Assembly (NCBI RefSeq): GCF_044324875.1
Contig: NZ_CP172185.1
Source: Escherichia coli
GTDB lineage: Bacteria > Pseudomonadota > Gammaproteobacteria > Enterobacterales > Enterobacteriaceae
Reading direction: 5' to 3' (one strand)
Length of the DNA stretch: 64,000 nucleotides
Positions 14,848 to 38,469 of this stretch are shown one piece after another (the stretch's first letter is position 1; each line of letters opens with the position of its first letter). Below the pieces are notes generated by a model that was not told the DNA's origin, did not search any database, and saw nothing but the letters and a program-made list of their open reading frames with translations. The position numbers and the translations under genes were made by a program.

Positions 14848-15033
14848 TGCTAAAGCGAAATAATGCTACTTCCGGTTGTTCTATTCATTAACCGGTGCAT
14901 CCTGTTAAAAAAGATGCCAACATATTTGCGTAAAACTCATTCGTTAAGAAAGCTAACACTGGGCATTGTTATTCCTTAAACAGTATGAATTGGGTTCAAT
15001 AATAAATTGTATTGCAGTTTATACTGTAAAGTA

Positions 15034-16140
15034 TTATTCGCATTTCGGGAAAGTAAAGAAAATATTAATGTATCTTATTAATTTATTATATTGTTCTTGA
15101 GTGAATGCTATTTGCACACCTTCAGGATAATATTCACCAGTAATAACCAGTTGTCCATTGCTGTGTTGTACCATTAAACCTTTTTTTTCCTTTGGATCTT
15201 CAAACTTAGAATTATCAAACGTGAAGATGTTATTTTCCTGTTTTGAGTAAGCAAAGAAATCTCGTGTATAGCTGAAACTATCATTTATTAATGGTGCTAA
15301 CTTTTTGTCGGCGATATCGATAAGCTCACCACTTAATTTATTGATGTATTTCATTTGGTTCAATTTTTTCTGCGCTTGTACAATTTGCTTGTAGGTATTT
15401 TTAATTTCCTTAGAAGAATTCTTGAATTTATCATAGCGTTCCACGGAGGATGCGTATTTGTACCATTCTGTATTTTTCTCAGAATGTAGTAGCAGGTCTG
15501 TATATTTTTTTTGATCGCTGTAAAGTTGACTTTTAATACTTTCCTCACTGCTGGTTTTATAAGGTTTATCAGAGCTGTTTATTTTTGAAATGTCTTTTTC
15601 TGTCGGTGACTGGACCGTGTTGTGGATATTTTCTTTTATAACATGTTCATTGATGATGTTAATTGCAGTTTCATATTCATTTAAGTTTATTGTTCTTTGT
15701 GAAATAAACCCTTCTTTGCTTTCGACACTCAAAATACCTTCGTTGTTTTCACCTCGGGTAAAGGTAAGGGTATAGGGTTCATAATCCGCTGCAAATTCAT
15801 TTTTATACGTTATGACATGTTCGACAAAATGTCTTATTGGTACGAAACCATAACTGTGAACGTCAATTTTTTGGGTCTTGATACTATCAATTGCATCTGA
15901 GGCTTTCGTGAAAAAAGCCAATAAATTAGCTATACTGTCTGCTGAAGTTGATAACCCGTATCTACTTTGAGATATTTTTAGAAACTCATCGCAAAAAAAC
16001 TCAAGTTTCGCGGTTTGTTGTGATTCTTTGTAAATTTCTGCTGGTTGCAATTTATTATTTTGTAAAATATTACAGCGAGATAAGTGAATAGATGTATTTG
16101 GAATAAATGATTCCTTGTATTGTGAGTTAACAAGATACAA
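15034..16140 (-). CDS. Hypothetical protein, 368 aa, AT-rich orphan; no recognisable domain, no signal peptide or TM segment
   Basis: Long uninterrupted ORF in a markedly AT-rich stretch (roughly 30% G+C by eye against about 50% around it); Lys/Asn/Tyr/Ile-rich codon usage unlike neighbours; no canonical SD at the first ATG, so the start is uncertain. Confidence 0.55.
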   Translation of the reverse strand: MYLVNSQYKESFIPNTSIHLSRCNILQNNKLQPAEIYKESQQTAKLEFFCDEFLKISQSRYGLSTSADSIANLLAFFTKASDAIDSIKTQKIDVHSYGFVPIRHFVEHVITYKNEFAADYEPYTLTFTRGENNEGILSVESKEGFISQRTINLNEYETAINIINEHVIKENIHNTVQSPTEKDISKINSSDKPYKTSSEESIKSQLYSDQKKYTDLLLHSEKNTEWYKYASSVERYDKFKNSSKEIKNTYKQIVQAQKKLNQMKYINKLSGELIDIADKKLAPLINDSFSYTRDFFAYSKQENNIFTFDNSKFEDPKEKKGLMVQHSNGQLVITGEYYPEGVQIAFTQEQYNKLIRYINIFFTFPKCE

Positions 16141-21104: not shown

Positions 21105-23390
21105 TCAGATCTTACATGCGCCGCTTTCGCAGCCATCGTCCTGGATTGACGGCACCAGATCGTCTTGTGCGTCTTCAGCGCCGTCACGGGTGTTCTGATA
21201 ATACAGCGTTTTGACCCCGAATTTGTAGGCGGTGAGCAGGTCTTTCAGCAACTGCTGCATCGGCACTTTTCCTGACGGGAAGCGTGACGGATCGTAGTTG
21301 GTGTTAGCAGAGATCGACTGATCGATAAATTTCTGCATGATACCCACCAGTTGCAGGTAGCCATCGTTACCCGGCATTTCCCACAGCAGCTCATAGGCGT
21401 CGTGCAGATGCTCGTAGTCCGGCACCACCTGGCGCAGAATACCGTCTTTCGACGCTTTGATGCTGACGTAACCACGCGGCGGTTCAATACCGTTAGTGGC
21501 GTTAGAGATCTGCGAAGAGGTCTCGGACGGCATCAGAGCAGAAAGCGTGGAGTTACGCAGGCCGTGCGTTTTGATTGACTCACGCAGTGCTTCCCAGTCG
21601 TAATGCAGCGGCTCATTAGCGATGGCATCCAGATCTTTCTTATAGGTATCGATCGGCAGGATCCCTTTCGCGTAAGTGGTTTCGTTAAACCACGGGCACG
21701 CGCCTTGCTCTTTCGCCAGCTCGTTAGACGCTTTCAGCAGGTAATACTGAATGGCTTCGAAGGTTTTATGCGTCAGGTTGTTGGCGCTGCCGTCGGAGTA
21801 GCGTTTACCGTGCTTCGCCAGGTAGTAAGCGAAGTTGATCACACCAATCCCCAGCGTACGGCGACCCATCGCCCCGCGTTTGGCGGCCGGGATCGGGTAA
21901 TCCTGATAATTCAGCAGCGCGTCGAGTGCGCGTACCGCCAGAATTGCCAGCTCTTCCAGTTCATCCAGGCTGTTAATTGCGCCCAGGTTGAAAGCAGACA
22001 GCGTACAGAGCGCGATTTCACCGTTCTCGTCGTTGACGTCGTTCAGCGGTTTGGTCGGCAGGGCGATCTCCAGGCACAGGTTAGACTGGCGCACTGGCGC
22101 GATGGCCGGATCAAACGGGCTATGGGTATTGCAGTGGTCAACGTTCTGAATATAGATACGACCGGTAGACGCACGTTCCTGCATCATCAGCGAGAACAGC
22201 TCAACGGCTTTCACACGCTGCTTGCGGATGCTGTCGTCTTTCTCATATTTGGTATACAGACGTTCAAACTCTTCCTGATCGGCGAAGAACGCGTCGTACA
22301 GCCCCGGTACGTCGGACGGGCTGAACAGGGTGATATCTTCACCTTTCAGCAGACGGGTATACATCAGTTTGTTGATTTGTACCCCGTAGTCCATATGACG
22401 CACGCGGTTGCCTTCCACCCCACGGTTGTTTTTCAACACCAGCAGGCTTTCAACTTCCAGATGCCACATCGGGTAGAACAGCGTTGCTGCACCGCCACGC
22501 ACACCGCCCTGAGAGCAGGATTTCACCGCTGTCTGGAAATGTTTGTAAAACGGAATACAGCCGGTGTGGAATGCTTCGCCACCGCGAATCGGGCTACCCA
22601 GCGCACGAATACGCCCGGCGTTGATGCCGATCCCGGCACGCTGGGAAACGTATTTAACAATCGCGCTGGAGGTGGCGTTAATGGAATCCAGGCTGTCGCC
22701 GCACTCGATCAGTACGCATGAGCTGAACTGACGAGTCGGGGTACGCACGCCGGACATGATTGGCGTCGGCAGCGAAATTTTAAATGTGGAAACCGCGTCG
22801 TAAAAACGCTTCACGTATTGCAGGCGCGTTTCACGCGGGTAGTTCGAGAACAGGCACGCGGCAACCAGAATATAAAGGAACTGGGCGCTTTCATAGATTT
22901 CGCCGGTCACGCGGTTCTGTACCAGATATTTGCCTTCCAGCTGCTTAACGGCAGCATAAGAGAAGGTCATATCACGGTCGTGATCGATAAACGTGTCCAT
23001 CTGCTTGAACTCTTCTTCCGTGTAGTCTTCCAGCAGATGATTATCGTATTTGCCCATCTCGACCATTTTCACCACGTGGTCGTACAGCGCAGGCGGCTCA
23101 AACTGACCGTAGGCTTTTTTACGCAGGTGGAAGATCGCCAGGCGCGCGGCGAGATACTGATAATCCGGCGCATCACGGGAGATCAGGTCTGCGGCAGCCT
23201 TAATAATGGTTTCGTGGATGTCAGAGGTCTTGATACCGTCATAAAACTGAATGTGGGAGCGCAGTTCGACCTGGGAAATAGAAACGTTATGCAGTCCTTC
23301 TGCCGCCCAATCCAGAACGCGATGGATTTTGTCGAGATTGATGCGCTCTGTGCTACCGTCGCGCTTTGTCACCAGCAGATTCTGATTCAT
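21105..23390 (-). CDS. nrdA: Class Ia ribonucleotide reductase alpha subunit
   Basis: 761-aa ORF MNQNLLVTKRDGSTERINLDKIHRVLDWAAEGL... with ATP-cone and catalytic cysteines. Confidence 0.95.
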   Translation of the reverse strand: MNQNLLVTKRDGSTERINLDKIHRVLDWAAEGLHNVSISQVELRSHIQFYDGIKTSDIHETIIKAAADLISRDAPDYQYLAARLAIFHLRKKAYGQFEPPALYDHVVKMVEMGKYDNHLLEDYTEEEFKQMDTFIDHDRDMTFSYAAVKQLEGKYLVQNRVTGEIYESAQFLYILVAACLFSNYPRETRLQYVKRFYDAVSTFKISLPTPIMSGVRTPTRQFSSCVLIECGDSLDSINATSSAIVKYVSQRAGIGINAGRIRALGSPIRGGEAFHTGCIPFYKHFQTAVKSCSQGGVRGGAATLFYPMWHLEVESLLVLKNNRGVEGNRVRHMDYGVQINKLMYTRLLKGEDITLFSPSDVPGLYDAFFADQEEFERLYTKYEKDDSIRKQRVKAVELFSLMMQERASTGRIYIQNVDHCNTHSPFDPAIAPVRQSNLCLEIALPTKPLNDVNDENGEIALCTLSAFNLGAINSLDELEELAILAVRALDALLNYQDYPIPAAKRGAMGRRTLGIGVINFAYYLAKHGKRYSDGSANNLTHKTFEAIQYYLLKASNELAKEQGACPWFNETTYAKGILPIDTYKKDLDAIANEPLHYDWEALRESIKTHGLRNSTLSALMPSETSSQISNATNGIEPPRGYVSIKASKDGILRQVVPDYEHLHDAYELLWEMPGNDGYLQLVGIMQKFIDQSISANTNYDPSRFPSGKVPMQQLLKDLLTAYKFGVKTLYYQNTRDGAEDAQDDLVPSIQDDGCESGACKI

Positions 23391-23465
23391 GTATGTCGTA
23401 CCTGTTTTTGGAATTCTTTCCGCAATAGTTTCATGCAGACTACCTGTAGTGAGGGAAGCTGCTTA

Positions 23466-23515
23466 GAACACTATATATAGGGGGTATGTTTGGGATTCAC
23501 TGCAAGATAGTGTGA
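23466..23515 (-). promoter_or_regulatory. Pair of NrdR boxes in the nrdA promoter region
   Basis: On the nrdA strand: ccccctatatatagtgttc and tcacactatcttgcagtg, two 16-18-bp palindromic boxes about 30 bp apart, 75-125 bp upstream of the nrdA ATG. Confidence 0.6.
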
Positions 23516-23544
23516 AAATGGCCCTCTTGCAAGTGCATAACTTT

Positions 23545-23553
23545 GTGGATAAC
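23545..23553 (-). promoter_or_regulatory. DnaA box (TTATCCACA) upstream of nrdA
   Basis: tgtggataa on the plus strand is TTATCCACA on the nrdA strand. Confidence 0.5.
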
Positions 23554-24085
23554 TCAGGAAGGAAAAAGTGGCTTTCGCGCACCTTAGGTCAGACAAGGTG
23601 TCCGGGAAAGTCAATGGGAAGAGAAAAATTTGTTAAAAATAACTGTTCGGCGATTTCTTGAACGGAAGAATAGGTTAGATAAATTGATATAGATGGTTTA
23701 TTAATCTTTTGGCTAATGATTGCAAAAATTGATCTAAGCACGAGTCATCACATAATCTGATGTATCAGTTATGGTCAATATATAAGCGAATGTAAGCGAT
23801 TGTTGATATCGAAATGGTTGTTTTCTCTTCGGTTGTTGTTAAATGCGAAGCCATTTTGTTAATTTACCTTATATTATAAGAAAATTATTCATTACTTTAA
23901 TTCAGTTTAAACATAACTGATATCCCTTAAGGTGATTAACTTGAATTATGACGCACTGATATTATTCATGAAATAATAACAAAATAGCCATTGCACCGGG
24001 TTGAACAATTTACAAAAGAAAAATAACCCATATCGTATAATGCGATTAAATATGCCGTCTTATAGAAAATGATGGTCAGATTAAT

Positions 24086-27000
24086 ATGCGGATTATTTTT
24101 CTACGCAAGGAGTATTTATCTTTACTCCCGTCAATGATTGCATCTCTTTTCTCTGCTAACGGTGTCGCGGCGGTCATTGATTCATGTCAGGGATATGATA
24201 TCAAAGCGAGTTGTCACGCCAGCAGGCAAAGCCTTTCAGGCATTACGCAGGACTGGAGCATCGCCGATGGGCAATGGCTGGTTTTTTCGGATATGACCAA
24301 TAACGCCAGCGGTGGGGCCGTATTTTTGCAACAAGGAGCGGAGTTTTCTCTATCGCCAGAAAATGAAACTGGAATGACTCTGTTTTCCAATAATACTGTC
24401 TCAGGAGAATATAATAACGGCGGGGCAATATTTGCTAAAGAAAACTCAACGCTGAATCTTACTAATGTTATTTTTTCCGATAACGTTGCAGGTGGCTATG
24501 GTGGCGCAATCTATTCTTCTGGTACTAACGATACCGGTGTCGTCGATTTAAGTGTCACTAACGCCGTGTTTCGCAATAACATCGCTAATGACGGCAAAGG
24601 TGGTGGAATTTATACCATCAACAATGACGTCTATTTAAGTAAAGTTATTTTTGATAACAACCAGGCATATACATCAACAAGTTACAGTGATGGCGATGGG
24701 GGTGCAATCGATGTCACCGATAATAATAGCGATATCACGCATCCGTCAGGTTTCACAATAATAAATAACACCGCATTTACAAATAACACTGCCGAAGGTT
24801 ATGGTGGGGCAATTTATACCAATAGCGTGTCGGCTCCCTATCTTATTGATATTTCGATTGATGACAGCTACAGCCAGAACGGCGGCGTGTTAATCGATGA
24901 GAACAATAGCGCGGCAGGTTATGGGGATGGTCCTTCCACTGCGGCGGGCGGCTTTATGTATCTCGGCTTAAGTGAAGTTACCTTTGATATTGCCGACGGA
25001 AAAACGCTGGTTATCGGCAATACAGAGAATGACGGAGCTGTTGACTCTATTGCTGGTACCGGGGTAATCACCAAAACAGGTTCCGGCGATCTGGTACTTA
25101 ATGCAGATAACAATGACTTTACTGGTGAGATGCAGATAGAAAACGGTGAAGTTACCCTGGGCCGCAGCAACTCCCTGATGAATGTCGGCGATACGCATTG
25201 CCAGGACGATCCGCAAGACTGCTATGGTCTGACGATAGGGAGTATTGATCAGTATCAGAATCAGGCTGAGCTAAACGTTGGCTCGACCCAACAAACTTTT
25301 GTGCACGCATTGACGGGCTTTCAGAATGGCACTTTAAATATCGATGCTGGTGGCAACGTTACTGTTAATCAGGGCAGTTTTGCTGGCACCATCGAAGGTG
25401 CTGGTCAGCTCACCATTGCGCAAAACGGCAGCTACGTGCTGGCAGGGGCTCAGTCGATGGCGCTAACTGGCGATATAGTCGTTGATGATGGCGCGGTGCT
25501 TACGCTGGAAGGCGACGCGGCAGATCTTGCCGCTCTCCAGGACGATCCGCAGTCGATCGTGTTAAACGGCGGTGTGCTTGATCTCTCTGATTTCGCCACC
25601 TGGCAGAGCGGCACATCATACAACGATGGCCTTGCAGTCAGCGGCAGCGGCGGTACGGTTATCGGCAGTCAGGATGTGGTGGATCTCGCAGGGGGCGACA
25701 ATTTGCATATCGGCGGCGACGGGAAAGATGGCGTCTACGTGGTGATCGATGCGGGCGACGGGCTGGTTAGCCTGGCAAACAATAATAGTTACCTGGGCAC
25801 CACGCAAATCGCTTCCGGTACGCTGGTGGTGAGCGACAACTCGCAGCTTGGAGATACCCATTGCAACCGCCAGGTTATCTTTACCGATAATCAACAAGAA
25901 AGCGTGATGGAGATTACTGCCAATGTCGATACTCGCTCTACAACGACTGAGCATGGGCGTGATATTGAAATGCGCGCCGACGGTGAAGTGGCAGTTGATG
26001 CGGGGGTAGACACGCAGTGGGGCGGACTGATGGCTGACAGCAGCGGGCAGCATCAGGATGAGGGTAGCACATTGACTAAAACGGGGGCGGGTACGCTGGA
26101 ACTGACCGCCAGCGGTACGACGCAGTCGGCGGTACGTGTCGAAGAAGGCACCCTGAAAGGCGATGTTGCGGATATCTTCCCTTATGCTTCGTCGCTGTGG
26201 GTCGGTGACGGGGCAACATTCAAGACTGGCGCGGATCAGGATATTCAGTCAATTGATGCTACTTCCAGCGGCACTATCGACATCAGCGATGGTACGGTTT
26301 TGCGCCTGACCGGGCAGGATACTTCCGTCGCCCTTAATGCCTCACTGTTTAACGGCGATGGGACGCTGGTGAATGCCACCGATGGTGTGACGTTGACAGG
26401 TGAGCTTAATACCAACCTTGAAACTGACAGCCTGACTTATCTTTCCAACGTGACGGTTAATGGCAATCTGACCAATACGTCCGGTGCGGTTAGCCTGCAA
26501 AATGGCGTCGCTGGCGATACGCTGACGGTAAACGGTGATTATACCGGCGGCGGTACGCTACTGCTCGATAGCGAATTAAACGGCGATGACTCGGCAAGTG
26601 ACCAACTGGTGTTGAACGGTAATACTGCTGGCAACACGACCGTGGTAATTAATCCCATTACGGGTATTGGTGAGCCGACATCTACAGGCATTAAAGTGGT
26701 TGATTTCGCAGCTGATCCCACGCAGTTTCAAAACAATGCGCAGTTCAGTCTGGCAGGTAGTGGCTACGTCAATATGGGAGCGTATGACTACACGCTGGTG
26801 GAAGATAACAACGACTGGTATCTGCGATCGCAAGAAGTAACGCCGCCATCGCCACCTGATCCCGACCCGACTCCCGATCCTGATCCCACACCGGATCCCG
26901 ATCCAACACCCGACCCAGACCCTACGCCTGCTTACCAGCCGGTGCTGAATGCCAAAGTTGGTGGATATTTTAATAACCTGCGGGCGGCAAATCAGGCGTT

Positions 27001-27838
27001 TGTGATGGAGCGACACGATCACGCTGGTGGCAATGGTCAGACGCTGAATTTACGTGTTATCGGCGGAGATTATCATTACACAGCAGCGGGGCAACTGGCT
27101 CAGCATGAAGACACTTCTACGGTGCAGCTTAGCGGCGACTTGTTTAGCGGGCGCTGGGGCACGGATGGCGAGTGGATGCTTGGGGCGGTTGGTGGCTACA
27201 GTGATAACCAGGGCGACAGCCGCTCGAATATGACCGGAACTTGCGCCGATAACCAGAACCACGGTTATGCCGTTGGTCTGACCTCAAGCTGGTTTCAGCA
27301 CGGTAATCAGAAGCAGGGGGCCTGGCTGGATAGCTGGCTGCAATACGCGTGGTTTAACAATGATGTTTCCGAACATGAAGATGGCGCGGATCATTACCAC
27401 TCATCGGGGATTATCGCCTCGCTGGAAGCCGGGTATCAGTGGTTACCGGGGCGTGGTGTGGTGATTGAACCGCAGGCGCAGGTGATTTATCAGGGCGTGC
27501 AGCAGGATGATTTTACCGCCGCTAACCATGCGCGCGTGTCACAATCGCAGGGGGATGATATTCAGACGCGGCTGGGTTTACACAGCGAATGGCGTACCGC
27601 GGTTGGTGTCACACCAACATTAGATCTGAATTATTATCACGATCCCCATGCGACGGAAATTGAAGAAGATGGCAGCACTATCAGTGACGATGCGGTGAAG
27701 CAACGGGGTGAAATAAAAGTGGGAGTCACGGGCAATATCAGTCAGCGAGTGTCCCTGCGTGGTAACGTGGCGTGGCAGAAAGGGAGTGATGATTTTGCCC
27801 AGACGGCAGGGTTTTTGTCGATGACGGTGAAATGGTAA
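24086..27838 (+). CDS. yfaL: AIDA-type autotransporter adhesin (beta-helix passenger, Pro-rich linker, C-terminal beta-barrel)
   Basis: 1250-aa ORF with N-terminal signal, GGA(I/V)Y-type passenger repeats, a (PDPT)n linker and C-terminal barrel ending in aromatic W; a 690-bp AT-rich leader lies upstream. Confidence 0.9.
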   Translation: MRIIFLRKEYLSLLPSMIASLFSANGVAAVIDSCQGYDIKASCHASRQSLSGITQDWSIADGQWLVFSDMTNNASGGAVFLQQGAEFSLSPENETGMTLFSNNTVSGEYNNGGAIFAKENSTLNLTNVIFSDNVAGGYGGAIYSSGTNDTGVVDLSVTNAVFRNNIANDGKGGGIYTINNDVYLSKVIFDNNQAYTSTSYSDGDGGAIDVTDNNSDITHPSGFTIINNTAFTNNTAEGYGGAIYTNSVSAPYLIDISIDDSYSQNGGVLIDENNSAAGYGDGPSTAAGGFMYLGLSEVTFDIADGKTLVIGNTENDGAVDSIAGTGVITKTGSGDLVLNADNNDFTGEMQIENGEVTLGRSNSLMNVGDTHCQDDPQDCYGLTIGSIDQYQNQAELNVGSTQQTFVHALTGFQNGTLNIDAGGNVTVNQGSFAGTIEGAGQLTIAQNGSYVLAGAQSMALTGDIVVDDGAVLTLEGDAADLAALQDDPQSIVLNGGVLDLSDFATWQSGTSYNDGLAVSGSGGTVIGSQDVVDLAGGDNLHIGGDGKDGVYVVIDAGDGLVSLANNNSYLGTTQIASGTLVVSDNSQLGDTHCNRQVIFTDNQQESVMEITANVDTRSTTTEHGRDIEMRADGEVAVDAGVDTQWGGLMADSSGQHQDEGSTLTKTGAGTLELTASGTTQSAVRVEEGTLKGDVADIFPYASSLWVGDGATFKTGADQDIQSIDATSSGTIDISDGTVLRLTGQDTSVALNASLFNGDGTLVNATDGVTLTGELNTNLETDSLTYLSNVTVNGNLTNTSGAVSLQNGVAGDTLTVNGDYTGGGTLLLDSELNGDDSASDQLVLNGNTAGNTTVVINPITGIGEPTSTGIKVVDFAADPTQFQNNAQFSLAGSGYVNMGAYDYTLVEDNNDWYLRSQEVTPPSPPDPDPTPDPDPTPDPDPTPDPDPTPAYQPVLNAKVGGYFNNLRAANQAFVMERHDHAGGNGQTLNLRVIGGDYHYTAAGQLAQHEDTSTVQLSGDLFSGRWGTDGEWMLGAVGGYSDNQGDSRSNMTGTCADNQNHGYAVGLTSSWFQHGNQKQGAWLDSWLQYAWFNNDVSEHEDGADHYHSSGIIASLEAGYQWLPGRGVVIEPQAQVIYQGVQQDDFTAANHARVSQSQGDDIQTRLGLHSEWRTAVGVTPTLDLNYYHDPHATEIEEDGSTISDDAVKQRGEIKVGVTGNISQRVSLRGNVAWQKGSDDFAQTAGFLSMTVKW
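26853..26928 (+). repeat. In-frame (CCN GAY CCN ACN)n repeat encoding the (PDPT)n linker of YfaL
   Basis: Translation SPPDPDPTPDPDPTPDPDPTPDPDPTP; the DNA is a near-perfect 12-bp tandem repeat. Confidence 0.8.
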
Positions 27839-27977: not shown

Positions 27978-28700
27978 TCACTTATTCTGCGTGTGCAGCA
28001 TATAGTTCACATCGACGCCGGGGCCGAGCTTAAAGGAATTAGTGATCGGGTTGTAATGCAGCCCGGTTATATGTCGCTCTTTTAAACTGGTCTGATCCAC
28101 CCAGCCCAGCAGTTCTGCCGGTTTTATAAATTTCTTCACGTCGTGCGTACCTTTGGGCACCATGCGCAAAATATATTCCGCGCCAACCACCGCCATCAGC
28201 CATGACTTGCCGTTGCGGTTAAGCGTTGAGAAAAAGACATCGCCGCCCGGTTTCACCAGTTGCGCACAGGCTCTGACCACTGACTGCGGATCGGGAACGT
28301 GCTCCAGCATCTCCATGCAGGTCACCACATCATACTGCCCGGCATGTTTTGCCGCGTGCTCTTCCACGGTTTCCTGCACGTACTCTACCTGAATGCCACT
28401 TTCCAGCGCGTGCAACTTTGCCACCTGCAATGGCTCAAAGCCCATATCCAGACCGGTCACCGTCGCGCCTTCGCGCGCCATACTCTCGGCCAGAATGCCG
28501 CCGCCACAACCGACATCGAGCACCTTTTTGCCAAATAAACCGCCAGCACGCTCGGCAATATAGCCCAGACGCAGCGGGTTAATGCGGTGCAGCGGTTTGA
28601 ACTCACCTTCAAGATCCCACCAGCGGGAGGCGACAGCTTCAAATTTAGCGATCTCTTCGTGGTCTACGTTATGGTTTACCGGCGATTTTTCGGCATTCAT
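27978..28700 (-). CDS. ubiG: Ubiquinone biosynthesis O-methyltransferase
   Basis: ORF 27978..28748; start chosen at ATG 28700 ([20 protein letters not shown]) with GGAG SD; SAM-binding motif LDVGCGGG. Confidence 0.9.
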
Positions 28701-28846
28701 TGGCACTTCTACTCCGTAATTGGCAAGACAAACGAGTATATCAGGCATTGGATGTGAATAAAGCGTATAGGTTTACCTCAAACTGCGCGGCTGTGTTATA
28801 ATTTGCGACCTTTGAATCCGGGATACAGTAGAGGGATAGCGGTTAG

Positions 28847-31622: not shown

Positions 31623-38469
<6,847 letters not shown>

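Follow-up and report, generated by a model that had tools for sequence, protein, structure and literature searches.

Adjoining nrdA and yfaL control domains in a divergent intergenic region of Escherichia coli

The 695-bp divergent intergenic region between nrdA (minus strand) and yfaL (plus strand) of E. coli, at positions 23391-24085 of a 64,000-nucleotide stretch of DNA analyzed here in full (hereafter, the window), is very probably a control region in two parts, with an nrdA module reaching to ~23665 and yfaL upstream DNA occupying ~23666-24085. An nrdA/yfaL divergent region of approximately 700 bp had been proposed in the initial annotation of this DNA, and this is borne out, with both flanking genes identified by NCBIfam: the nrdA open reading frame (761 amino acids) matches NF006578 over its full length at 1642 bits, and the yfaL open reading frame (1250 amino acids) matches NF007285 at 2787 bits. 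The nrdA gene is likewise annotated by RefSeq in near-identical E. coli genomes, and the best complete-genome match to 23100-24400 is at 99.5% identity (strain 1190 and others). Downstream of the NrdR operator, nrdA is followed by nrdB and yfaE. The nrdA-yfaL region of E. coli is already known and its biology in this species is not new; the anatomy, statistics, conservation and insertion history given below come from this analysis, while binding and regulation are taken from the literature and the mechanics of repression are what we infer. The overall layout is as follows.

21105-23390, minus strand: nrdA coding sequence, class Ia ribonucleotide reductase alpha subunit, start codon at 23390-23388
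23553-23665, minus strand: conserved nrdA upstream control region, defined by cross-species identity
23666-24085, unstranded: AT-rich, sequence-variable yfaL upstream region, ~420 bp, GC 0.29, a likely H-NS platform
24086-27838, plus strand: yfaL/ehaC, AIDA-I family autotransporter adhesin gene

The nrdA module contains a sigma-70 promoter, read from the sequence as TTGCAA and TATCTT with 17 bp between them.

23527-23532, minus strand: nrdA promoter -35 hexamer TTGCAA, from sequence and spacing
23504-23509, minus strand: nrdA promoter -10 hexamer TATCTT, 17-bp spacer from TTGCAA
23391-23497, minus strand: predicted nrdA 5'-UTR of ~107 nt, from promoter geometry

Among Enterobacterales we find two alternative nrdA promoter architectures, termed type A and type B; in the 27 species with type A, to which E. 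coli belongs, the -10 hexamer TATCTT is invariant and the -35 is kept as CACTTGCAA. The nrdA transcription start site is predicted at ~23497, a position 7 nt past the -10 hexamer, which agrees to within a few bases with the published statement that NrdR box 0 spans the -10 and the start site. Similarly, a published figure legend places the nrdA -10 within NrdR box 0 (PMC12176259), and a CRISPRi study reports that guides against ypaB, an open reading frame annotated antisense to this promoter, strike the nrdA promoter, stating that 'ypaB contains the promoter of nrdA'. Within the 5'-UTR, 13 bp at 23410-23422 are deleted, with no regulatory box hit, in C31 (~92.7% identity), the one variant inspected from the ~990 E. 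coli records in the 90-95% identity band.

NrdR boxes were assigned by the published description of a 16-bp, partially palindromic element with key positions C4, A6, A8, T9, T11 and G13, and three are present on the nrdA strand.

23500-23515, minus strand: NrdR box 0, TCACACTATCTTGCAG, the historically annotated upstream box, overlapping the -10; 5 of 6 key positions
23468-23483, minus strand: NrdR box 1, CCCCTATATATAGTGT, the central indispensable box, ~+15 to +30; 6 of 6 key positions
23437-23452, minus strand: NrdR box 2, TCACTACAGGTAGTCT (nrdA sense), ~+46 to +61; 5 of 6 key positions

The linkers, 16 bp from box 0 to box 1 and 15 bp from box 1 to box 2, both fall within the 15-16 bp spacing of two-box operators, and the key-position deviations are C for A at position 6 of box 0 and a G at position 9 of box 2. 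Two boxes had initially been placed at 23466-23484 and 23498-23515; these stretches do hold the classical box 1 and box 0, and the high-affinity partner, box 2, was missed. Box 1 is the single match with three or fewer mismatches to the NrdR 16-mer consensus in the 64-kb window, a count that taken alone is not above chance (1 observed vs 0.54 expected). Single-motif counts were replaced by composite tests and phylogenetic footprinting, and the phased NrdR pairs have no counterpart elsewhere in the window and arose in 0 of 200 composition-matched simulations.

Work of 2025-26 on the K-12 sequence shows that E. coli NrdR binds box 1 together with box 2, and in the window this pair would make up the high-affinity operator. 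NrdR binding needs ATP plus dATP and two boxes, and is abolished by mutation of box 1 (as cited in PMC12176259). On box 1 and box 2 of K-12 the reported KD is 113 nM (PMC12176259); the K-12 box 2 begins GTAC and the allele in the window TCAC, a difference confined to the non-critical positions 1-2 (TC here, GT in K-12). The classical reading is that NrdR represses through box 0 and box 1, lying on the -10 and transcription start and occluding RNA polymerase, with box 2 incidental. E. coli NrdR binds that older pair in vitro at >6000 nM, mutation of box 0 in a 185-bp probe left binding unaffected (PMC12176259), and a C6A change in box 0 raises affinity ~10-fold, all of which speak against it, and yet conservation favors the older pair. 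Box 0 and box 1 with their 16-bp linker are conserved across the 80 Enterobacterales species compared, retaining 11 of 12 key positions in essentially all of them; box 1 positions 4, 6, 8, 9, 11 and 13 are 100% conserved, as are C4, A8, T9, T11 and G13 of box 0 in both promoter architectures (vs 0.59-0.65 for the linker), while a full box 2 occurs only in Escherichia and Pseudocitrobacter. In type A the overlap of box 0 with the invariant -10 accounts for much of its conservation, but in type B, with the -10 located 5' of box 0, the hexamer cannot account for it, and the DNA 3' of box 1 is taken up by DnaA boxes, leaving box 0 as the sole possible partner. Moreover, mutation of either annotated box in Salmonella has been published to increase nrdAB expression. 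Because the key positions of box 0 are as conserved as those of box 1 in all 80 species, the in vitro work with 57-bp fragments may understate its role. Weighing both sides, we regard the classical pair as unlikely to be the working operator in E. coli and prefer box 1 with box 2.

Upstream of the NrdR boxes, two DnaA boxes were identified by comparison with the 9-mer TTATNCACA, both on the nrdA strand.

23544-23552, minus strand: consensus DnaA box, TTATCCACA, 9 of 9 positions, ~-55 to -47
23532-23540, minus strand: promoter-proximal DnaA box, TTATGCACT, 8 of 9 positions, abutting the -35 with a 1-nt overlap

The two boxes are co-oriented and 12 bp apart, a tandem that occurs nowhere else in the 64-kb window and arose in 1 of 200 simulations; single DnaA-like 9-mers are not enriched in the window (39 vs 51 expected). 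A DnaA box had been reported at 23545-23553; it is present, with its true position one base lower, and the second, 8/9 box had gone unnoticed. Across Enterobacterales, a DnaA box lies within 90 bp on either side of box 1 in 78 of 80 species, and a review describes DnaA-ATP as stimulating nrdAB at low levels and repressing it at high levels. Control of nrdA by NrdR and DnaA was correctly called in the initial annotation.

The DNA beyond the DnaA boxes, 23553-23665, is conserved nrdA control DNA with published HusR boxes, not silencer DNA.

23555-23570, unstranded: HusR (YnfL) box, CACTTTTTCCTTCCTG, from PMC12844172 Table 1 (ypaB/nrdA spacer), placed by inspection
23590-23605, unstranded: HusR (YnfL) box, CAGACAAGGTGTCCGG, from PMC12844172 Table 1, which lists both orientations

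Identity across this stretch is at least 90% when E. coli, E. albertii and Pseudocitrobacter are compared and falls sharply past ~23665; within it, a 37-bp block (23605-23641) shows zero differences between Escherichia and Pseudocitrobacter. For HusR, the sequences of the boxes have been published along with gel-shift and RT-qPCR data (PMC12844172), and reviews describe Fis and IciA as binding upstream of nrdA and activating it. In addition, the DnaA-box/upstream segment recurs at 95% identity in P1/P7 phages, which hints that the nrdA control module is mobile.

The same stretch overlaps an annotated open reading frame, so the earlier statement that there is no ORF up to the yfaL start was formally wrong, the RefSeq entry being probably spurious.

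23518-23661, plus strand: ypaB, RefSeq-annotated 47-aa open reading frame, antisense to the nrdA promoter

If ypaB were a genuine small-protein gene, 23518-23661 would owe its conservation to coding, and RefSeq does annotate it in most E. coli genomes, 'ypaB' signals have been reported by RT-qPCR (PMC12844172) and RNA-seq, and P1-like elements carry a related ORF start. As a candidate gene, however, it failed all coding tests run and was rejected. Differences are spread over the three codon positions as 8/6/9, with no third-position bias, and the codons holding 21 of the 23 are non-synonymous; the frame is interrupted by a stop in E. albertii; the 25 nt ahead of the start lack a Shine-Dalgarno sequence; a search of NCBIfam gave no match at E <= 1; and the ATG is CTG in C31, the single variant inspected from the ~990-record band. 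Moreover, ypaB coincides exactly with known regulatory sites, and the effects of CRISPRi against it are accounted for by the nrdA promoter. Collectively, ypaB is probably not a real gene, and conservation through coding is highly improbable.

Past ~23665 the region changes character. From 23621 to 24085 the GC content is 0.292 vs 0.51 for the window, within the lowest 0.02% of 465-bp windows, in agreement with the earlier description of a strongly AT-rich remainder. The sequence of 23666-24085 is 30-60% identical to other Escherichia and Pseudocitrobacter alleles, with a GC content of 0.29 in all of them, and in 1052 complete E. coli genomes it is only 80-90% identical; identity bands over 5425 E. 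coli genomes fit a split at ~23665. The neighbor upstream of nrdA is ubiG in ~70 of 80 species, and yfaL adjoins nrdA in only 4 of ~80 lineages; it has this position only in Escherichia, in Pseudocitrobacter and in one further lineage. Between ubiG and nrdA, yfaL is an insertion specific to its lineage.

This AT-rich DNA is a likely H-NS platform, or 'promoter island'. In the compilation of promoter islands by Panyukov and Ozoline (2013), the yfaL/ypaB spacer of K-12 is H-NS-positive in all compiled ChIP studies, and the published island maps to ~23603-24136. Similarly, an RpoD genomic-SELEX table flags the spacer 'HNS', reviews list H-NS as an nrdAB repressor, and a yfaL phenotype has been seen only with an inserted constitutive promoter. 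The proposal that all of the DNA up to the yfaL start is a nucleoid-protein-bound silencer for yfaL is supported for 23666-24085 by the ChIP compilation, the SELEX flag, the phenotype seen only with an inserted promoter, the lineage-specific yfaL and the maintained GC content, and does not hold for 23553-23665. Alternatively, the 420 bp could serve mainly nrdA and tune nrdAB from far upstream, as an activating, curved or H-NS-responsive element, in keeping with the reviews that describe repression by H-NS and upstream activation by Fis and IciA, and with a published promoter island that reaches into the conserved part, to ~23603. We judge this to be quite unlikely, since conservation collapses past ~23665 even within Escherichia, most Enterobacterales have ubiG rather than AT-rich DNA upstream of nrdA, and the AT-rich DNA is always found together with yfaL.

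The H-NS motif TCGATAAATT has one 9/10 match in the region (23676-23685), and matches are scattered window-wide and uninformative. A simple hexamer scan gave 6 promoter-like sites in the AT-rich part vs 3.7 +/- 2.0 in shuffles, an excess that is not significant; the published promoter-island call used PlatProm, a different algorithm. A candidate yfaL promoter was predicted by consensus scan, and the RpoD genomic-SELEX table gives the same TTGATC/CATAAT pair for yfaL.

23729-23756, plus strand: candidate yfaL promoter, TTGATC-16-CATAAT, a prediction

A terminator scan of the region found none. An Rfam scan of 23200-24300 returned IS605-orfB-I as its sole match, rejected as chance at 19.5 bits, far under the gathering score of 94.2, and the short repeats of the AT-rich part, both direct and inverted, are low-identity two-copy matches that we took as chance. 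A repeat search did not locate the published 45-bp inverted repeat.

Together, these elements suggest how the region may work. The sigma-70 promoter would fire leftward from ~23497, with activation presumably supplied by the HusR boxes and by further conserved upstream DNA (Fis and IciA, per the literature). DnaA would occupy both of its boxes, the perfect one at -55/-47 and the weaker one that abuts the -35, such that low DnaA-ATP may aid transcription and high DnaA-ATP would fill the -35-proximal box and repress. At high dATP, an NrdR tetramer carrying both ATP and dATP would bind box 1 and box 2 (~+15 to +61), bending the DNA and blocking initiation or promoter escape, with box 0 over the -10 as the putative ancestral partner box and, in E. 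coli, a weak auxiliary contact at best. On the other side of ~23665, the yfaL upstream DNA may have arrived with, or evolved alongside, the inserted yfaL, and its base composition, not a specific sequence, would recruit H-NS filaments that keep yfaL silent in ordinary growth and may also dampen nrdA.

Comparison across Enterobacterales sets the E. coli arrangement beside the type-B nrdAB promoters of Citrobacter, Klebsiella, Enterobacter, Pantoea and Erwinia, and of Salmonella by published description. Like E. coli, these have box 0 separated from box 1 by a 16-bp linker; their DnaA boxes are likewise in tandem at 12-bp phasing, and the downstream gene is the same. In type B, however, the -35 and -10 (TTGTAC, 16 bp, TAGAAT) are located 5' of box 0, the 5'-UTR holds the DnaA boxes directly 3' of box 1 with a third box inverted, there is no full box 2, and ubiG, not yfaL, is upstream. 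Escherichia and Pseudocitrobacter combine a type-A module resembling that of Yersinia and Serratia with the yfaL insertion, and their nrdA coding sequence is closest to that of type-B Citrobacter. A tentative explanation, which we hold possible but doubtful, is that the nrdA promoter module and its NrdR operator have turned over in enterobacterial evolution, with box 2 arising in Escherichia/Pseudocitrobacter and NrdR shifting by one box; box 0 and box 1 would then be the ancestral pair, and the sole possible one in most Enterobacterales. Under such turnover, either box 0 may still be active in vivo, within a three-box or alternating-pair operator missed by 57-bp probes, or the operator may have been replaced through a recombinational promoter swap.

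Since nrdAB is essential and supplies the dNTPs for DNA replication, its promoter integrates replication status through DnaA-ATP, the dNTP pool through NrdR, and growth phase through Fis, HusR and H-NS. For annotation, the working NrdR operator belongs at box 1 and box 2 and not at the older pair, ypaB is not to be counted as a gene, and the end of the conserved control DNA at ~23665 is to be taken as the start of the yfaL-associated silenced DNA. Beyond E. coli, the cross-species comparison offers a modest lead on the exchange of repressor operators and promoter modules.

The closest known system is the same locus of E. coli K-12 (b2233-b4605-b2234), which has the same 695-bp length and no indels. 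Its differences from the window follow the division described here, with 3 substitutions in the proximal ~275 bp (23391-23665) and ~25 in the distal 420 bp; within named elements they affect positions 1-2 of box 2 and, in addition, one base of the -35/-10 spacer. The nrdAB operator also resembles those of E. coli nrdHIEF and nrdDG, in which two 16-bp boxes 15 bp apart are bound by ATP/dATP-loaded NrdR at 113-160 nM (PMC12176259), and is unlike them in lying downstream of the transcription start and in its third box, which is weak, phased and set over the -10. Similarly, the spacer is among the 78 islands listed by Panyukov and Ozoline (2013), being AT-rich, H-NS-positive and beside a predicted foreign gene. 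Unlike the other promoter islands, it is shared with the promoter of an essential and highly regulated housekeeping operon, such that silenced and active domains abut at ~23665.

The segment separating nrdA from yfaL is a real and well-characterised regulatory region that is already known. It has the K-12 length of 695 bp, with no indels relative to K-12, and most of the length of a 1.3 kb stretch spanning it is matched in 5412 of 5426 complete E. coli genomes (top identity 99.5%). In the matching genomes RefSeq annotates yfaL and nrdA together with a small gene, ypaB, and past nrdA the gene order continues with nrdB and then yfaE. The features discussed here, in window coordinates and with offsets relative to the predicted nrdA transcription start site (TSS), are as follows.

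Start codon at 23390, minus strand: nrdA, a 761-aa ORF (NCBIfam equivalog NrdA, 1642 bits)
23437-23452, minus strand: NrdR box 2, TCACTACAGGTAGTCT, +46 to +61, matching 5/6 key positions
23468-23483, minus strand: NrdR box 1, CCCCTATATATAGTGT, +15 to +30
23500-23515, minus strand: NrdR box 0, TCACACTATCTTGCAG, -18 to -3
23509-23504, minus strand: nrdA -10 element TATCTT, 17-bp spacer from the -35
23532-23527, minus strand: nrdA -35 element TTGCAA, from the sequence
23532-23540, minus strand: DnaA box matching at 8/9 positions, TTATGCACT, -43 to -35, abutting the -35
23544-23552, minus strand: perfect DnaA box, TTATCCACA, -55 to -47
23518-23661, plus strand: ypaB, a RefSeq-annotated ORF of 47 aa
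23555-23570: published HusR box, mapped onto the window from the published list
23590-23605: second published HusR box, mapped likewise
23729-23756, plus strand: candidate yfaL promoter TTGATC-16-CATAAT, from a promoter scan
Starts at 24086, plus strand: yfaL/ehaC, a 1250-aa ORF (autotransporter adhesin YfaL/EhaC, 2787 bits)

Alignment of the intergenic DNA from the window, K-12, another Escherichia genome, E. albertii and Pseudocitrobacter reveals a sharp conservation boundary at ~23665. The nrdA-proximal ~275 bp is ≥90% conserved, upstream control DNA on which the initial annotation, correct in outline, was incomplete; the yfaL-proximal ~420 bp has 30-60% identity, yet a GC content of 0.29 in every genome. 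Differences from K-12 number 3 in the proximal and ~25 in the distal part. Of 5425 complete E. coli genomes, 1052 show just 80-90% identity in the distal part; the proximal part is ≥95% identical in most, with the exception of ~990 records at 90-95%. The one member of this band inspected, strain C31, has a 13-bp deletion (CGGAAAGAATTCC, 23410-23422) in the 5'-UTR of nrdA, on the stretch that links box 2 to the ribosome-binding region; it touches no regulatory box.

The strongly AT-rich composition noted at the outset for the yfaL side is borne out, with a GC content of 0.292 for 23621-24085 (window, 0.51), within the lowest 0.02% of 465-bp windows. Composition rather than sequence is conserved here, as expected for an H-NS platform, and published data support the proposed silencing of yfaL. 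Among 78 promoter islands is the yfaL/ypaB spacer (~23603-24136 after conversion to window coordinates), which is H-NS-positive in every compiled ChIP study and is associated with predicted foreign genes (Panyukov and Ozoline, 2013). In an RpoD SELEX table the spacer carries the flag "HNS", and the hexamer pair given there for yfaL is the one found by our scan; GadE and GadX binding has been reported near yfaL, and YfaL phenotypes have been observed only after insertion of a constitutive promoter. Promoter-like sites in the AT-rich part number 6, vs 3.7 +/- 2.0 expected in the promoter-density test, and the region holds one 9/10 match to the H-NS motif (23676-23685), matches to which are dispersed throughout the window.

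A second stretch of the window, 14966-15440, is equally AT-rich (GC 0.292); it adjoins glpQ, and an ORF labelled "hypothetical protein" (15034-16140, minus strand) overlaps it. Just 1046 of 5426 E. coli genomes have matches covering ≥80% of the 1 kb around it, a distribution suggestive of an accessory insertion. Separately, a locus labelled E. coli SCPM-O-B-8794 (L003, positions 1-1500) encodes an NrdA N-terminus 100% identical to that of the window, and its YfaL N-terminus is just 74% identical, with an E. albertii-like yfaL upstream region. None of the complete E. coli genomes in the collection falls below 80% identity over the yfaL upstream segment, and the SCPM-O-B-8794 locus may represent an Escherichia lineage under the wrong label or an allele replacement.

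The region had also been described as lacking any ORF, which is formally incorrect, as ypaB is annotated, but right in substance, because ypaB fails coding tests. From a start in the interval separating the nrdA -10 from the -35, the ORF extends antisense across the DnaA and HusR boxes. Its differences from Pseudocitrobacter are spread 8/6/9 by codon position, with 21 of 23 in non-synonymous codons; E. albertii carries an in-frame stop, and in C31, the single genome inspected from the ~990-record band, the start codon is changed from ATG to CTG and ypaB is unannotated. Neither a Shine-Dalgarno sequence nor a protein family match was found for ypaB.

Upstream of nrdA, TTGCAA-17-TATCTT is the sole good sigma-70 arrangement, and its geometry predicts a TSS at ~23497 and a 5'-UTR of ~107 nt. 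The perfect DnaA box reported initially is real, its true position being one base from the 23545-23553 first assigned; the 8/9 box, co-oriented and 12 bp downstream, had been omitted. DnaA-like 9-mers are singly not above chance in the window (39 observed vs 51 expected), and the 12-bp-phased pair is unique in the 64 kb and arose in 1 of 200 composition-matched random sequences. DnaA boxes lie ≤90 bp from box 1 in 78 of 80 Enterobacterales species, which provides strong independent support for DnaA control of nrdA. According to reviews, nrdAB is stimulated by low and repressed by high DnaA-ATP; its activators include Fis, IciA and DnaA, and its repressors H-NS and NrdR. For the LysR-type activator HusR (YnfL), which was described in 2026, published boxes are listed in the ypaB/nrdA spacer (PMC12844172).

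Two further perfect DnaA boxes occur on the minus strand, at 28753-28761 (TTATTCACA, directly upstream of an ORF identified as ubiG, 27978-28748, minus strand) and 36900-36908; a total of three per 64 kb may be chance. The segment holding the nrdA -35, DnaA boxes, HusR boxes and upstream DNA recurs with 95.4% identity in phages P7, P1 and SJ46, with window 23514-23643 corresponding to 1501-1629 of the P7 locus, where the copy adjoins IS903. In P1-like phage-plasmids (323 plasmid places; 2501-2615 of one such plasmid locus), a ~78%-identical version immediately precedes hot, which encodes a homologue of Pol III theta, with an identical ~36-bp core over the -35 and both DnaA boxes and oriented in the ypaB direction.

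The two NrdR stretches recognised initially contain the box 1 and box 0 16-mers, separated by 16 bp; as an operator this pair is out of date, with box 2 omitted. The NrdR consensus is singly not above chance (1 match vs 0.54 expected in the window), and phased NrdR pairs occur nowhere else in the 64-kb window and appear in 0 of 200 composition-matched random sequences. A 2025 study (PMC12176259) newly recognised box 2 and named the earlier-listed pair box 0 and box 1, for which E. coli NrdR binding was >6000 nM; box 1 with downstream box 2, 15 bp apart, bound at 113 nM, as tightly as the nrdHIEF and nrdDG operators. On a longer probe, mutation of box 0 was without effect and binding was eliminated when box 1 was mutated (PMC12176259). 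The rules in a 2026 preprint require two boxes, a 15-16 bp linker and key positions C4, A6, A8, T9, T11 and G13; it puts the failure of box 0 down partly to C at position 6 and places box 0 over the -10 and TSS, in agreement with our predicted TSS within a few bases. Box 2 of the window differs from K-12 (GTAC...) solely at non-critical positions 1-2.

In the most likely mechanism, for which binding data come from the literature and we infer the steric details, RNA polymerase would use the TTGCAA/TATCTT promoter, helped by DnaA on the perfect box, and at high DnaA-ATP occupation of the -35-abutting box would block transcription. An NrdR tetramer with ATP and dATP would clamp boxes 1 and 2, which lie in the early transcribed region, and would bend the DNA, preventing productive initiation, with box 0 an auxiliary contact at most in E. 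coli. Activation would involve HusR and other upstream factors, and H-NS would polymerise over the AT-rich side, silencing yfaL and possibly damping nrdA.

We also compared 80 orthologous nrdA upstream regions from across Enterobacterales, anchored on box 1. The immediate upstream neighbour of nrdA is ubiG, in the same orientation, in ~70 of these 80 species, and only Escherichia, Pseudocitrobacter and one further lineage have yfaL there, which makes yfaL a lineage-specific insertion. In a comparison with loci L005-L010, the nrdA coding DNA (from 22791) of E. coli is closer to Citrobacter (88-90% of nucleotides; third positions 69-73%) than to Pseudocitrobacter (85.5%; 63.5%), and the upstream control region (to 23665) aligns with Pseudocitrobacter alone, a mosaic discordance that sets in at the start codon of nrdA and accompanies the insertion of yfaL between ubiG and nrdA.

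Key positions of box 1 are 100% conserved, and box 0 is present in 80/80 species at a fixed 16-bp distance, with C4, A8, T9, T11 and G13 100% conserved and C nearly always at position 6; linker columns have a mean conservation of 0.59-0.65, and a full box 2 is found only in Escherichia and Pseudocitrobacter. The ~300 bp upstream of nrdA at these loci follow two promoter architectures. In type A (Escherichia, Pseudocitrobacter, Yersinia, Serratia, Hafnia, Dickeya, Edwardsiella and others), the DnaA boxes are upstream of a TTGCAA -35, and box 0 contains the TATCTT -10. In type B (Citrobacter, Klebsiella, Enterobacter, Kluyvera, Pantoea, Erwinia and others), TTGTAC-16-TAGAAT is positioned immediately 5' of box 0; the DnaA boxes, in tandem as TTATCCACA-GAG-TTAGTCACA, adjoin box 1 on its 3' side within the 5'-UTR, and an inverted TGTGGATAA comes after them. 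Because TAGAAT lies 5' of box 0, the -10 cannot account for box 0 conservation in type B, and since NrdR needs two boxes and DnaA boxes occupy the DNA after box 1, the partner of box 1 must be box 0, with which Salmonella mutational data agree. Box 0 and box 1 are thus the evolutionarily conserved pair, though E. coli NrdR prefers box 1 and box 2 in vitro.
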